From the NCBI GenBank assembly GCA_965248755.1, contig OZ252149.1, forward strand, positions 1,280,001-1,344,000: DNA of 64,000 bases, written 5' to 3'. The notes beneath the pieces were generated by a model, which ran no database searches, was not told the origin of the DNA, and saw nothing but the letters and a program-made list of their open reading frames with translations. The position numbers and the translations under genes were made by a program. Below are positions 3,056-60,726 of the stretch, piece by piece; position 1 is the stretch's first letter; the number at the start of each line of letters is the position of its first letter. The DNA comes from Candidatus Latescibacterota bacterium (GTDB lineage: Bacteria; Latescibacterota; CBDEFO01).

Positions 3056-4343
3056 CATACCGCTCCCCTTGACAGGGCGACAAATATTTTGCAAATTGGG
3101 GTTTGAGAAAGGAGGTCAAGGTGTCAAGCCCCGAAGTGAAAGATGGTAAGCGCTGGACGGCGACCCGTAAGGTAGAGGTGGTGTTGGCTGTTTTGAAAGG
3201 AGCGAATGTATCAGAGGTGTGTTGGAAGAATGGAATTAGCCAGTCACAGGCGTATGCTTGGCGTGATAGTTTCTTGGAAGGAGGCCAGGAGAGTCTGAAG
3301 TCTCGGCGTGGTCGCAAGGATGCGAAGGAGCGGGAGGTCAGCCGGTTGGAGCGTAAGGTAGGGCACTTAACCCTCCAGTTGGAGATACTCGAGGAGGTAG
3401 CCCGTCTAAAAAAAACGAAGCGGTTGCCTTGAGTGAGCGGTTTTTGGGTCGAGGCTATTCCCGGAAGGTGGTAGCTTTGGCTTTGGGTTTGCATCGTTCG
3501 ACTCTGTGTAGGCTTAGGTATAGAGGTGTCAGTTCTTCTGTCGAAGAGTCTGTGATAGATGAACAGCTTGCTTTTCGTATTCGAGGGATACTCGACCAAG
3601 AAGAGGCATTTGGTCACAGGCGGGTTTGGGCGCATCTTCGTTTCAAGGAAGGGGCATATGTCAACATCAAGAAGGTTCATAGGATAATGAAGCTTAAGGG
3701 GTGGCAGTGTAAGCTGTGGAATCCCCGATAGAATCAATCGGGGACCCCGGGAGAAAGGGGCCACAGGTTGCCCAGAAGCGTTCTGTGATGGATCGTCCTG
3801 ACAGTCTCTGGTCGGCTGACTTGACCAAGATCTATTGTGGGGAAGATGGTTGGTGTCCTCTTATTGCGGTGGTGGACAACGGGAGTCGGGAGGTTCCCCG
3901 GGTATCGTTTTAGTCGAAAAGGGAGGGCACTGGAGGCCACAGATGCCCTGGATCGGGCCGTGATCTCTCGATACACTTCCTAAGGAGGCTGTCCCCCAGG
4001 GTCTCACTTTGCGCTCTGACAACGGCTCCATCTTTTTGTCTCGGACCTATTTGGCAAGTACCGAATATTGGGACATTCGTCAAGAATATATTCCGAGCGG
4101 AAAGGCCGATTGGAACGGGGTCATAGAACGTTTTTTCAGGACCCTCAAGCAGGAGTGTGTGTGGCTTCACAATTTCAAGTCCTTTGAACAAGCTGAGAAG
4201 ATCATATCTCAGTGGATCGATAATTACAACAAGAACTGGCTTCATTCATCTCTGGGATACAAGACCCCGGAAGAGTGGAGAAAACAATTTTATCTGCTAC
4301 CCCAAGTTGCTTAATTGATGTCGCTTTTCTGGGGGGCAGTACA
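3056..4343 (+). mobile_element. Second IS3-family copy, orfB inactivated
   Basis: Colinear with 495-1760 with the same IRs; orfA 3103-3432 intact; orfB broken by a palindrome at 3722-3744 and further 1-nt insertions near 3899 and 3981; flanks AGTA / ATCT are not duplicated. Confidence 0.95.
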
Positions 4344-22312: not shown

Positions 22313-22422
22313 TCCCCGATTGATTCTATCAGGGATTGGTTGTTTGTAAAGAGACTCGTCATTCAACTTCGGTGCGCTATCCGATCTATCCTAACCTTCC
22401 CCCGCCATCTGGATAATCGACG

Positions 22423-25574: not shown

Positions 25575-25690
25575 TCCAAGGGAGCCTTGCCAGTGAAGTC
25601 TGTCTATATCGGATGGAGACAGATGGATCCCCGATAGACTCAATCGGGGATGGATTTGTGCAGACGAGTAAGCTGGACTTGATGAGATAG
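25575..25690 (+). pseudogene. Second FlgD/T9SS-like C-terminal tail relic, carrying a palindrome insertion
   Basis: SLASEVCLYRMETDG[insert]FVQTSKLDLMR* aligns with the relic at 10900-11000. Confidence 0.6.
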
Positions 25691-25884: not shown

Positions 25885-26192
25885 TACCTTACTCTCTTGA
25901 CAGAGCGACAAATATGTTGCAAATTGGGGTTTGAGGCTTGTCCCCGAGTGATGCTATCGGGGAAAGGAGATCAACTTGTCAAGCCCCGAAGTGAAAGATG
26001 GTAAGCGCTGGACTGGGACCTGTAAGGAAGAGGTGGTGTTGGCTCTTTTCAAAGGAGCAGATGTATCAGAGGTGTGTTGGAAGAATGGAATTAGGCAGTC
26101 GCAGGCGTATGCTTGGCGTGATAGTTTCTTTAGAAGGAGGCCAGGAGAGTCTGAAGTCTCGGCGTGGTCGCAAGGATCCGAGGGAGCGGGAG
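25885..26192 (+). mobile_element. 5' remnant of the same IS3-family element
   Basis: TTGACAGAGCGACAAATAT left end and frameshifted orfA; palindrome inserted at 25941-25963. Confidence 0.85.
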
Positions 26193-39629: not shown

Positions 39630-41471
39630 GTGAAGAGACACGCCCTCTTGTTCATATCCCTGCAGATCAGCAGGGCTGCCCTGTCTCCCCCCATTAAATC
39701 TATCGGGCGTTACTGTCTTCTGTCTGCTTTAATCGTGCTTGCAGGTTGCGCCAGTCCTGCCAAAAAACACTACCGAGCCGGAAGTGAATACCATTCCAGA
39801 GGTCTTTTGGACGAAGCCATATCCGAATACCGGCAGGCTCTCGACATACAGCCCGAATACGCCAGAGCGCAGTTCCATCTGGCAAATGCCTACTCAGATA
39901 AGGGTCTCCTGAACGAGGCTGTATCGGAGTATAAGAAGGTACTTAAGAGGTATCCCGGATATGCAGAAGCCCACTATAACCTCGGGCTGGTATATGCCTT
40001 AAAGGGCCTACTGGACGAAGCTATCAAAGAGTACGAAAGGGCGCTGTGGATATATCCGGATTTCGTGGAAGCTCACTACGGCCTTGGAGAGGTTTACAGA
40101 CAGAAGGGACAACTAGACCGAGCCGAAGCAGGATACAGAAGGGCACTGAGGCTCTACCCAGGTTTTGCTGAAGCTCACCACGGCCTTGGAGAGGTTTTTA
40201 GAAAGAAAGGATGGTCTGACCGTGCTATTTCAGAATACCAGACCGCCATCGGCATACGTCCCAGCTACGAAGAAGCGCACTATGGCCTTGCGTTAGTGTT
40301 CGCAGACAAGGGACTTCTGAAAGAATCCATCGCGAGATATCAAAGGGTGCTAGAGCTGGATCCCAATTTCGTCCAGGCTTACCTCCAACTTGGAAACGCC
40401 TACAAGAAAGAGGGACTCCTGGATCGGGCTACAGATAGCTATAGAAAAGCAATAGACCTTTATCCTGATTACGCTGAAGCCCACAGGGAATTAGCTGATG
40501 CCTACAGACGAAATGGGATGGCCAACGAGGCACTTGAAGAATATAGGATCTACCGGGAGAAAGAGCTCCTTTACAGAGCCAGACCGCACAACAGCTTGGC
40601 TCTTTCCTACGCCAACAACGGCCTTATGGATGAAGCTATAAAGGAATGGAAAGAAGCATTAGAAATATATCCCGGCTACGCCGAAGTCCATAACAACCTT
40701 GGAAACGCTTATCTGCAGAGGGGTACAATCGAGGAAGCTATAAGAGAATACAAAAACGCCATAAGGATCGAGCCGAGCCTCGCCTTAACGCACAGCAATC
40801 TCGGAAGCGCATACTCCCAGAAGGGGTTGTTGGACGAGGCAATAGTAGCATGGAAGGAAGCAGTAGAGATTGAACCTAACTACGCCGGAGCCCACTATAA
40901 CCTTGGAAACGCCTACTCCCAAAAGGGGATGATCAACGATGCTATAGAGGAATACAGAAAAACTGTGGAGATAGATCCAAAACAGGTGCTGGCACACAAC
41001 AACTTAGGGGTAAAATACTATTACAAGGCCCGATACGATGAGGCTATATCGGAATTCCAGAAAGCCCTATCTATTGACTCCAGCTATGTAAACGCCCAGT
41101 CTAACATAGGGGACATATATAAACACAGAGGAATGTACAACGTTGCCGTAGCTGAGTTTCAAAAAGCCCTGAAGATGAATCCCCACTACGGCTACGCTTA
41201 TGGCAGATTGGCCTCCATCTACTACATCCAGGGTCTATACGAACAGGCCCAGTCAGCCCTAGAGGAGGCAGAAAAGTTCCAGGACGATCCCTGGGCATCC
41301 TACAGCATCGGGTGCTACTACTCCCTCAAACGCGACCTACAGACGTCCCTTATGTGGATCAAACGGGCAATTGATCTTGGGCTTAAAGACTTCGAATGGA
41401 TGAAGCACGATAAGGACTTAGACTTCATAAGAGAGGAACCTGAATTTAAGGAGATGATCGCATCAGAGTAA
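39630..41471 (+). CDS. TPR-repeat lipoprotein
   Basis: Lipobox VLAGC; about 15 34-aa TPR units; C-terminal YSIGCYYSL...DKDLDFIR cap. Confidence 0.92.
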   Translation: MKRHALLFISLQISRAALSPPIKSIGRYCLLSALIVLAGCASPAKKHYRAGSEYHSRGLLDEAISEYRQALDIQPEYARAQFHLANAYSDKGLLNEAVSEYKKVLKRYPGYAEAHYNLGLVYALKGLLDEAIKEYERALWIYPDFVEAHYGLGEVYRQKGQLDRAEAGYRRALRLYPGFAEAHHGLGEVFRKKGWSDRAISEYQTAIGIRPSYEEAHYGLALVFADKGLLKESIARYQRVLELDPNFVQAYLQLGNAYKKEGLLDRATDSYRKAIDLYPDYAEAHRELADAYRRNGMANEALEEYRIYREKELLYRARPHNSLALSYANNGLMDEAIKEWKEALEIYPGYAEVHNNLGNAYLQRGTIEEAIREYKNAIRIEPSLALTHSNLGSAYSQKGLLDEAIVAWKEAVEIEPNYAGAHYNLGNAYSQKGMINDAIEEYRKTVEIDPKQVLAHNNLGVKYYYKARYDEAISEFQKALSIDSSYVNAQSNIGDIYKHRGMYNVAVAEFQKALKMNPHYGYAYGRLASIYYIQGLYEQAQSALEEAEKFQDDPWASYSIGCYYSLKRDLQTSLMWIKRAIDLGLKDFEWMKHDKDLDFIREEPEFKEMIASE

Positions 41472-55019: not shown

Positions 55020-55185
55020 GTTGAACCCGTGCGTGGTGTGTCAGACTGTCTGAGACGCAAGCGGGTACACAACAATTGCTGCCCTACGGACTTCATTATC
55101 GGCATTCTATTGTCGTGGGTCAGTCCCCGATTGAATCTATCGGGACCTGTCTGACACGCAGATTTGGGGAAACGGAAGGAGACGC

Positions 55186-57082: not shown

Positions 57083-57329
57083 TTAGCTAGGTAAACAGTA
57101 GTCAGTAGCCCCCCGATTGAAGCTAACTGGGATAAACGTGGCCCCAATATCTCCTTTCTAAGTCATCATTGCGAGCCAAGCGAAAGGTTTGCGAAGCAAC
57201 TTCATATAGACTGCCTTGTCTACTGTTTGCTACTTACTATTCTGGATCTCTATTGTCACCTCCAGACCATTTTGACCTGAAACTTAAGAAAGGACACAGA
57301 GGCTTGCTCTCCCTGGAGGCCGGTAAGGT

Positions 57330-58202: not shown

Positions 58203-58418
58203 ACAGCAAGAAGGTAGGGGAGGATGCCCTGCAAGAACGTAGGGAGGATGCCCTGTATTGACTACGAGATTAGCTTCCCCCCGACCCCCGATAGAGTCAA
58301 TCGGGGGTGCTCGCAACGACGGTTTAGAGGATTCGTAATGACGTTGCCGGGCTTCGGCTTCAGTCATTGCAAGGGGTGGAACCCCGAAGCAATCTCACCT
58401 TTCTACTGTCTACTATGT

Positions 58419-59140
58419 TCAGTCGTCTGAGCCGCCTCTGAGTATGAGCAGGCGGATAAGGTGGATGACAGCCACAGCTGCTGACGCCAGATAGGTCAGC
58501 GCCGCGGCATTTAGGACTTTCCTGGCGGACTTTATTTCGTCCTGAGCCAGATATCCCTCCCCTGTGAGGATCTTTATGGCTCTGCTGCTGGCGTTAAATT
58601 CGACGGGCAAAGTCACAAAGTGAAACGCGACAGCCAGGGTAAACAAGGCTATGCCAAGGTCTATCAGGGGTTCATATCCGAAGAAGAAGCCTCCTATGAA
58701 CAAGGGCCCCATGCTAATTTAGATCCGAAGCCTACTACGGGCACTAAGCTGGTTCCTCAAAGACAGTGGGGCGTAGCCTGCAGCCGTAGCCTGCAGCGTG
58801 CTGGAGCGCGTGTCCTGTCTCGTGTGCGGCGATACCTATGGGCGGACACAGACCTTGAGGAATAGACGCCCTCCGAAAGCCGCATAACTCTGTCGCGCGG
58901 ATCGTAATGATCCGTCAACTGGCCATCTATCACCTCCACTGCCACATTGTGAAGGCCGTTGTGATCCAAAAGCCTTCTGGCCACCTGTGCGCCGGTCAGT
59001 CCACTCCTTGCGTAAACCTCACTGTACCTGGAGTATGAACTCTTTATCTTAGCCTGAGCGTAGAGGGTGAGGATTATGGCAGGGATCAAAAGGATGAAGG
59101 TGGGGTCCCAAAATAAGGGGAAGAAGAATAGAGGATATAT
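58419..59140 (-). pseudogene. YugP-like neutral zinc metallopeptidase, multiply frameshifted
   Basis: GLTGAQVAR, GQLTDHYDP, AAHETGHALQH, TLPVEFNAS, AAALTY spread over several frames. Confidence 0.88.
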
Positions 59141-59168
59141 GGATTTAACCCCCTGATTTTGAACTTCA

Positions 59169-60119
59169 CTATTCGAATTGTTCTTTTTGAGACAACCTGT
59201 AGCCGCGGACAAATTCAGAGGCGGTCATCTTCTTTTTACCGGCAGGTTGAACCTCCAAAAGCCGGAGAAAACCCTCTCCAGTGGCTACTACTATCCCATC
59301 CTTGGGATCAGATACTATAATCTCCCCCGGCTTACTTTTACATTCTCGCTCCTCACGAGCAGCCCTATGTATTTTAAGTTCCTTCTCCCTCCAGATCGTG
59401 AACGCTCCAGGGTACGGATTTGTTCCCCTTATAAGGTTCCTTATCGTCTCTGGGCCTTTATTCCAATCAATCCTGCCGTTTTCCTTCTTAATCTTAGGGG
59501 CTTTCGTCGCTCCCACTTTGTCCCCAATTGAGTCTATCGGGGATTGAGGGATACGTATAGCCATTCCTGACTCCAAGAGTTCTATAGTCTCCACGAGCAT
59601 ATCTGCGCCTTCGGCTTTCAGTCTGTCGTAAAGCTCTCCTGCTGTCTCGTCATTTCCTATTTCGACTTTCTCCTGTAGGATTATGTCCCCGGTGTCAACC
59701 TTTTCGTCTATTACGAATGTCGTAAGACCCGTCTCCTTTTCACCATTTATGATGGCCCAGTTTATGGGTGCCGCTCCTCTGTACTTGGGCAATAGAGACG
59801 CATGTAGGTTAAGCGAACACAATCGGGGTATCATCAGAACCGAAAGAGGCAGGATTCTAAAGGCTACGACTACAAAAAGATCGGGTCGAGCGTCGGAAAG
59901 GGCAGAGTGGAAATGGGAATCTTTGAGGCTTACAGGCTGCATTGTGGGGATATTGAGTCTCTGCGCTTCCACCTTAACCGGGGAAGGTGAAAGCTTCTGT
60001 CCTCTTCCTTTCGGAGTGTCTGGACGAGTCACAACACACACACAATCGTGCCTGCTCCCTGCAATCCTCCCAAGAGACGGAACGGCAAAATCGGGCGTCC
60101 CCATGAAGATCAATCTCAT
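59169..60119 (-). CDS. fmt: Methionyl-tRNA formyltransferase
   Basis: FMGTPDFA, VVTRPD..KGRG, NLHASLLPKYRGAAPI, DTGDII, NPYPGA. Confidence 0.97.
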   Translation of the reverse strand: MRLIFMGTPDFAVPSLGRIAGSRHDCVCVVTRPDTPKGRGQKLSPSPVKVEAQRLNIPTMQPVSLKDSHFHSALSDARPDLFVVVAFRILPLSVLMIPRLCSLNLHASLLPKYRGAAPINWAIINGEKETGLTTFVIDEKVDTGDIILQEKVEIGNDETAGELYDRLKAEGADMLVETIELLESGMAIRIPQSPIDSIGDKVGATKAPKIKKENGRIDWNKGPETIRNLIRGTNPYPGAFTIWREKELKIHRAAREERECKSKPGEIIVSDPKDGIVVATGEGFLRLLEVQPAGKKKMTASEFVRGYRLSQKEQFE

Positions 60120-60442: not shown

Positions 60443-60726
60443 GCGAACCTCCTGACTTTAATTATGGTTGGCACTGTCAACTGGATTTCGAAATCCGTCC
60501 CGCATCTGTCGGGCCAGTCCCCGATTGCTTCTATCGGGGACGCGTGTCTGCTCAGAAACTAAACTACGGACCGGGCTGCTCGGTCCCTGGGCTCTTTCTT
60601 AGGGTGCATGAGGTGGTGACATCAAAGCACGAAGTGCCCTTGCCCCTGCACTCGTAGAGGCGATCTTGCACCCTTTACCTTGTATGTCGTTAACTGCCTA
60701 CTAATTGGGGTGCTCCATCCAGAACT

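Follow-up and report, generated by a model that had tools for sequence, protein, structure and literature searches.

The hairpin insert in fmt

The window (the whole 64,000-nt stretch of DNA that was analysed) comes from the genome of a Candidatus Latescibacterota bacterium, referred to here as G000, and carries the gene fmt, in which a short palindrome lies in frame. The following features were distinguished at this locus.

59169..60119, minus strand: fmt, encoding methionyl-tRNA formyltransferase, 316 aa; sole copy above the TIGR00460 cut-off
59521..59543, minus strand: 23-nt hairpin copy seen in the sequence (21-nt core at 59522-59542 plus a T-A foot pair); repeat family D6
59523..59543, minus strand: codons 193-199, SPIDSIG, which lengthen the interdomain linker by a net 7 residues; gap in 28/28 Fmts of other genera
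59526, minus strand: derived synonymous stem change, Ile198 ATC to ATT; the G001, X5 and X15 contigs have ATC
59517..59520, minus strand: 4 nt that may be the tail of the element's 27-nt form; they resemble CAAG/CAGG tails, and D200-K201 would then be element-derived

The protein reads IRIPQ-SPIDSIG-DKVGATKAPKI, with S193-G199 encoded by 59543-59523 on the minus strand directly after the invariant Gln192. It was aligned with the best 30 loci from the phylum, where an Fmt match was obtained in 40/41 genomes searched. The net gain was exactly 7 residues against 28/28 Fmts of other genera, which lack these residues rather than having a linker of equal length. The preliminary description had reported an in-frame palindrome that adds SPIDSIG to Fmt, and its coordinates and reading were right. 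It had also equated the extra 21 nt with the hairpin; the net gain is indeed 21 nt, whereas the hairpin itself spans 23 nt. When mapped onto Escherichia coli Fmt, the insert aligns between Q196 and D197, within the interdomain linker, which the accessible text of PMC8843374 places at residues 190-208.

The same 7 residues are present at this site in Fmt of G001, a sister species of the same genus, and the insert was also found in fmt contigs of two other runs, X5 and X15. The fmt hairpin is composed of the T-A foot pair, 7-bp arms and a 7-nt loop; folded as RNA, it forms an 8-bp stem with a 7-nt loop (-10.7 kcal/mol, z -3.1). The ATT-for-ATC mismatch in its stem, earlier described as synonymous, proved to be derived as well. 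At position 59526 G001 keeps ATC, together with a synonymous change of its own in the loop, and the contig of run X15 (depth 2) carries an unchanged hairpin in fmt, with ATC as in the X5 contig. Both differences between the G000 and G001 inserts are synonymous, a pattern that weak selection could produce as well, and in RNA the change at 59526 produces a G-U pair, still paired.

No empty fmt allele was detected in the best 30 loci of the 41 genomes, in 80 metagenome loci (at most 56% identity) or 32 protein hits, or in four runs (X9 and X12 had no coverage of the site). Because no such allele was found, we infer the insertion junction. A CAAG/CAGG tail is present on 77/582 oriented hairpin copies, and the four bases past the fmt hairpin are similar. 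The element-derived stretch may thus reach 59517, with SPIDSIGDK standing in place of two linker residues.

The gene that follows fmt (58419-59212, minus strand) encodes a PF04298 zinc metallopeptidase and is split into two frames. Several small indels distinguish it from G001, as does a 13-nt duplication at about 58771-58797; indels apparently occur in the G001 copy too.

The encoded Fmt enzyme

In a profile search, residues 1-313 of Fmt were matched by TIGR00460 with a score of 276.9 bits (cut-off 201.5). This was the only match over the cut-off in the whole G000 genome, and no second fmt was found. The preliminary description had proposed that a stop-free insertion of 3n nucleotides is tolerated in a housekeeping enzyme and adds peptide to it, and this reading is supported: other genera lack the 7 residues and fmt is the sole copy above the cut-off, the insert being presumably translated. 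N104, H106 and D142, which we take to be the catalytic residues and the counterparts of E. coli N108, H110 and D146, are invariant in 32/32 aligned sequences. In comparison with the known family (TIGR00460; PDB 1FMT, 2FMT), the protein is alike in being full-length with two domains, and differs in its 7 extra linker residues.

An AlphaFold model of Fmt has a mean pLDDT of 92.5 and a TM score of 0.91 to 2FMT. Its sole stretch with pLDDT <50 comprises residues 196-200, which form neither helix nor strand. In this model the insert is located in a predicted surface loop and the predicted fold is intact. Between G000 and G001, fmt differs by 22 synonymous and 20 nonsynonymous changes (dN/dS 0.26), and its frame is open in both. 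Since the catalytic residues are kept, dN/dS is 0.26 and the model resembles 2FMT, the fmt of G000 looks intact and under purifying selection, and its product is a predicted full-length two-domain enzyme, expected to formylate Met-tRNAfMet.

Alternatively, this lineage might be able to do partly without fmt, or selection on the gene might be relaxed, with the insert mildly harmful but unpurged. The fmt gene is non-essential in several bacteria, for a housekeeping gene a dN/dS of 0.26 is not especially low, and the gene downstream is broken by indels, all of which count in favour of relaxed selection. It is nevertheless difficult to reconcile with a frame that is open in both species and with intact catalytic residues, or with the similar inserts in pheS, smc, lpxD and the Fmt linkers of other lineages (see below), and we consider it quite improbable.

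A dispersed hairpin family

The view of the hairpin as a dispersed element was confirmed. Its 21-nt core occurs in 592 copies in G000 (at most 4 mismatches), on both strands and over the whole chromosome, and the 23-mer gave 538 genome matches (at most 4 mismatches) compared with 0 in one mononucleotide shuffle. The window holds 10 copies, and the fmt copy is the only one inside a called gene. The other nine are as follows.

60519..60539, minus strand: same hairpin, upstream of yajC; not present at the orthologous position in G001
58286..58306, plus strand: same hairpin, intergenic, inside another REP-like repeat
57111..57131, minus strand: same hairpin, intergenic, 3 mismatches
55125..55145, minus strand: same hairpin, intergenic
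39688..39708, minus strand: same hairpin, 3 mismatches
25942..25962, minus strand: same hairpin
25629..25649, plus strand: same hairpin
22314..22334, minus strand: same hairpin
3723..3743, plus strand: same hairpin; flanks common to several insertion-sequence-like repeats

An IS-like repeat is present at 495-1750 and 3056-4335 of the window. Words from it occur ~80-88 times in the genome, and the hairpin occupies one and the same internal position in at least 5 of its copies.

The structure of the hairpin was examined in 522 de-duplicated copies. The foot pair, which is T-A or C-G, is complementary in 74% of them versus 44% expected, and stem pair 5/17 covaries between G-C and A-T (32 A-T copies, odds ratio 81). 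Complementarity of the second pair is not above chance, and the loop has 7 nt. Given the foot-pair complementarity and the covariation at 5/17, the hairpin itself is the putative unit that propagates. The same asymmetric loop is found in hundreds of copies, which argues against the palindrome having arisen locally by template switching or as an assembly artefact, and so does the finding of the insert in another, independent genome (G001) and in the X5 and X15 contigs. Template switching could improve stem-foot pairing beyond the core, but the chance of such an origin seems to us negligible.

Neighbouring copies are separated by gaps of <120 nt in 38/591 cases, and 77/550 hairpins are nested in another copy. 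The vicinity of a copy contains another REP-like repeat or a heptamer array 3-6 times more often than that of a random intergenic point, and heptamer arrays are frequent neighbours of the hairpin in G000.

Of 168 genomes of the phylum searched at up to 1 mismatch, only two have many copies, G000 (360) and G001 (374), and one other genome has a single match. A collection scan identified at least 94 loci; among the matches listed, 82 came from one Candidatus Latescibacterota assembly and 12 from records titled Deltaproteobacteria, Thermodesulfobacteriota or, once, archaeon. No description of the motif or of its peptides was found in the literature, of which subscription papers and the supplements of Chenal 2025 could contain one.

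Presence and absence between sister species

G000 was compared with 2.43 Mb of the 4.6 Mb of G001; long blocks are ~94% identical. Where the flanks of a copy were unique and could be aligned, 31/199 copies in G000 and 39/216 in G001 had no match at the orthologous site; this presence/absence comparison is unrooted (no outgroup), so that some cases may be losses. For 45 of the 70 cases the net difference was 18-28 nt, including 27 nt (13 cases), 19 nt (11) and 20 nt (7, of which four are non-independent, being situated in copies of a single host repeat). The other 25 were set aside as nested changes, large deletions or misalignments.

As judged by eye, several 19-nt gains split a CG, with the insert lying between its two bases, the 20-nt gains have the 23-mer in place of ~three bases, and the 27-nt gains usually end in a 4-nt tail. 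A constant target duplication was not found: 452/550 copies have no direct repeat of at least 2 nt around the 23-mer, and a few insertion sites show direct repeats of 3-5 nt. In rmlD (G000:C1:4004483) a 27-nt in-frame copy is present in G000 and absent from G001. Two 19-nt copies of G001 (C4:151897 and C8:77243) lie in ORFs that are open in G000, and would shift the frame.

Copies inside genes

Genes were called as hexamer-model ORFs made in this analysis. By these calls, 94 of the 592 copies are inside ORFs and 79 (74 genes) inside confident ORFs. The hairpin density is 0.023/kb in confident genes versus 0.567/kb in intergenic DNA, making it 24-fold rarer in genes. All 79 coding copies, which occur in both orientations, are in four stop-free frames that encode SPIDSIG, SPIESIG, PDRFNRG or PRLNLSG; the count of 0/79 stop-bearing frames is partly built into the ORF calling. 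Most are internal (52), while 16 are at most 40 aa away from an uncertain start and 11 are near C-termini. The hosts identified include pheS, smc, the secA tail, lpxD, leuD, a phosphoglucosamine mutase gene, meaB, the mtnA tail and rmlD. Besides fmt, 47 of the 74 host genes were compared with family libraries, 27 of these 47 via their G001 orthologues; the orthologue comparison covers fmt and the 10 in-frame species differences (rmlD included), and the other hosts were identified by family match.

Species differences located in genes are multiples of 3 in 10/12 cases, compared with 12/33 elsewhere (Fisher p=0.006). This bias and the depletion of copies in genes are as expected if the insertions are translated, and together with the occurrence of both orientations in genes they speak against removal of the hairpin from RNA, or its skipping by the ribosome, either of which would leave an Fmt of normal length. 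The stable 8-bp RNA stem is what such a mechanism has in its favour. To our knowledge, 21 nt is far below the size of any self-splicing RNA, and we regard removal or skipping as very unlikely.

The deviations of coding copies from the consensus are synonymous in 25/103 cases, against ~29 expected from the intergenic spectrum. As there is no synonymous excess, the hairpin-encoded peptides look neutral. For the same reason the synonymous mismatch in the fmt copy is no evidence of peptide selection. Coding copies differ between the species by 5 nonsynonymous and 4 synonymous changed codons.

Co-option would mean that the SPIDSIG loop or the mRNA hairpin is selected and tunes Fmt activity, folding or transcript stability. 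It would fit with the three sampled alleles, which have the same peptide and differ at synonymous sites, and with the derived stem change, which keeps a G-U pair in RNA. However, only two changes were seen, neither the deviations from the consensus nor the changed codons of coding copies show a preference for synonymous change, and the linker varies freely in other Fmts. We therefore see only a slim chance of co-option.

The coding copies and the 45 before/after site pairs constitute a natural insertion-scanning experiment. If targeting is unbiased, the survival of in-frame, stop-free insertions would be ~1 in 6.

The Fmt linker as a permissive site

The segment around the insert was compared in 141 Fmts, in which it measures 31-55 residues: 32 residues in 71 proteins, 33 in 32, and 39 in this genus. 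Twelve long Fmt linkers from other lineages were then inspected. The linker at locus L270 contains an unrelated 21-nt hairpin (PRLPDGQ) in frame at the same position, within heptamer repeats; those at L253, L256, L278 and L281 contain heptamer arrays, and that at L279 a 21-nt tandem. Judging from these sequences, the insert site is a permissive linker, and some long Fmt linkers of other lineages are repeat-derived. With a linker that is naturally permissive, the tolerance of the insert is unsurprising.

Our overall reading, to which we assign a probability of about 0.8, is that a mobile hairpin was inserted in fmt before the split of G000 and G001 and has remained as a neutral passenger in the linker. 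On this reading a genus-wide mobile hairpin, with a 21-nt core and 23-27 nt when its ends are included, entered the gene so as to be read in a stop-free frame, of which it has four, and lengthened the gene by a net 21 nt. The ribosome would read straight through it, the 7 residues would form a neutral surface loop, and formylation would be unaffected. More generally, the repeat would land with ragged ends; gene insertions that shift the frame, carry stops or disrupt protein cores would be purged, and in-frame copies in loops, linkers and termini would persist. Taken alone, the fmt insert shows cleanly, but in no unusual way, how a palindrome adds peptide to a conserved enzyme.

Comparison with known palindromic repeats

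The fmt insert and its hairpin are another case of the peptide-coding palindromes known from other bacteria. As far as can be judged from gene sequences, a dispersed palindrome is here apparently inserted in frame in unrelated conserved genes.

The intragenic REPs of the GTAG/CGTC superfamilies (PMC3733652) are, in the accessible text, likewise short dispersed palindromes, mostly intergenic, with a minority of copies in frame in genes. Their hosts are ordinary genes, including those for tRNA synthetases, and the authors suggested neutrality in linkers and loops (PMC3733652). The hairpin of this genus differs in having no GTAG/CGTC tag, a 7-nt rather than 4-5-nt loop and mostly single copies. 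It also adds only ~7-9 residues, whereas over half of the intragenic REPs are dimers or groups and add 20-30 residues (PMC3733652). Neither fmt nor the present motif was matched in the four text supplements of that paper. CGTC-tagged REPs have a tag-hairpin-dimer architecture with an 8-9 bp stem starting from AT and a loop of 4-5 nt (Di Nocera et al. 2013, PMC3733652). Identity with them was rejected on the grounds of the missing tag (0 strict matches), the T-A/C-G foot, the 7-nt loop and the few close pairs (38/591). A GTAG REP/REPIN with a RAYT was rejected as well: GTAG stands beside 16 and 15 of 550 copies, and PF01797 was found in neither G000 nor G001.

Rickettsia palindromic elements (RPEs; Ogata et al. 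2000, 2002, as cited in the accessible parts of PMC10969869 and PMC3733652) are similar in being lineage-restricted palindromes that provide new peptide segments in frame. RPEs are ~150 bp long, encode one conserved peptide and lie in genes in nearly half of the cases, whereas the hairpin described here is 21-27 nt long, is read in four frames and has 79-94 of 592 copies in genes. Identity with RPE-1 to RPE-3 was excluded by the same differences in length and in the number of peptides (four versus one). A MITE (70-300 bp, constant duplication, IS termini) was also rejected in view of the lack of duplication at 452/550 copies and the variable net length.

The SDRs of Nostoc described by Elhai and colleagues in 2008 are reportedly mobile repeats of 21-27 nt that insert into other repeats. 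We know of no dedicated enzyme for these SDRs. They resemble the hairpin in their tiny size but apparently differ from it in phylum and in sequence, the likeness being one of description. SDR5 targets HIP1 and, according to the accessible text of PMC5861425, is not found outside Nostocaceae.

Tagged relatives and the possible mode of spread

The same stem-loop, equipped with a TGTC-AT tag, is present in genomes G168, G169 and G171 (titled Deltaproteobacteria), often as head-to-head dimers, and dimers were seen for the tagged form only; CGTC-tagged REPs are built in the same manner. It was found in 11/13 genomes of the order of G168. Tag-less copies occur inside the spacers of tagged dimers at loci L347, L351 and L357. 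Strict searches for the tagged form gave 0 matches in G000 and G001, and a relaxed search of G000 gave 1. The tag-less 21-mer had 0 exact matches in the viral collection.

Ssn proteins, the enzymes that partner CGTC-tagged REPs, are small GIY-YIG single-strand nucleases that cut ssDNA beside GTC-tagged hairpins (Chenal et al. 2025, PMC11893778). As reported in the accessible text, the tag is needed for cutting, and it is cutting, not mobilisation, that was shown (PMC11893778). The hairpin of this genus differs from the Ssn targets (NTS/SRM) of that study in lacking the required tag. Identity with SRM was also rejected, since the published degenerate pattern fits 0/592 copies; it likewise fits 0/11 and 0/58 of the tagged form, but since it also misses the flanks of 5/8 small GIY-YIG loci, the pattern is not exhaustive.

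An intact Ssn-like GIY-YIG gene of 107 aa was found at L359:610-960 (G001:C4), between inverted TGTC-tagged hairpins of another sequence. G000 is without this gene, and six stubs of its 5' end remain there. A small GIY-YIG match in G169 has no hairpin flanks. None of 7 Ssn-like loci or 54 viral loci, a small sample from incomplete genomes, had an Ssn gene flanked by the present hairpin, and no Ssn homologue was found in the 54 viral loci that carry the tagged hairpin.

In G000 no Y1 transposase (PF01797) and no DUF559 protein (PF04480) were found, and G001 is also without PF01797. The one GIY-YIG match of G000 lies in a 608-aa frame of UvrC size. Other candidates in G000 are two reverse-transcriptase matches and one gene for a four-helix-bundle protein (PF05635) with an internal TGA (G000:C1:3731598-3732140, 3678513-3678905 and 2579539-2579850), which are not directly flanked by copies. 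Inspection by eye of the first 90 residues encoded by the 58 genes that have a copy on either side revealed no evident transposase or nuclease.

These candidates bear on the suggestion that an IS transposase moves the hairpin as a minimal MITE, or that a resident reverse transcriptase copies it through RNA. The IS-like repeat with its ~85 genomic copies, the two reverse-transcriptase matches and the few sites with direct repeats of 3-5 nt would be in keeping with it. It is at odds with the large majority of copies that lack a direct repeat, with net gains of 18-28 nt in which target bases are often replaced, and with the absence of an evident enzyme among the copy-flanked genes. We think it rather unlikely; it would in any case touch the mechanism of spreading only, and not the fmt observation.

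In our estimation it is about as likely as not that the hairpin derives from a TGTC-tagged REP, as its stem-loop without the tag, and that it spreads in the form of short ssDNA entering nicks near hairpins. According to this proposal, the ssDNA hairpin would be inserted by recombination where nicks occur in other hairpins or close to them, with the help of a hairpin-recognising nuclease acting in trans, for which an Ssn-type enzyme of the GIY-YIG family would be the best candidate. A broader and more doubtful generalisation is that tag-less stem-loops shed from nuclease-target REPs might form a distinct kind of minimal mobile DNA. Such elements, with a net length of 19-27 nt and no enzyme of their own, would cross phyla letter for letter, home on hairpins and be a source of 7-9-residue insertions (Fmt, PheS, SMC, LpxD), with the Fmt linker as a recurrent landing site. 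If true, this would link the dispersal of CGTC REPs and of SDR-like repeats with a route that can be tested, single-strand recombination driven by Ssn. The tagged and tag-less hairpins with their nested insertions provide a concrete substrate for testing Ssn-driven spread.

Some of the viral contigs with tagged hairpins (L361-L414) carry many of them in the same orientation, e.g. 10 in 39 kb or 8 in 30 kb, with no Ssn homologue within 800 nt. At L416:497-523 the arm of a tagged repeat, right beside an Ssn-like gene, contains a nested tag-less hairpin of another kind, and similar nested remnants were observed at L419 and L420.
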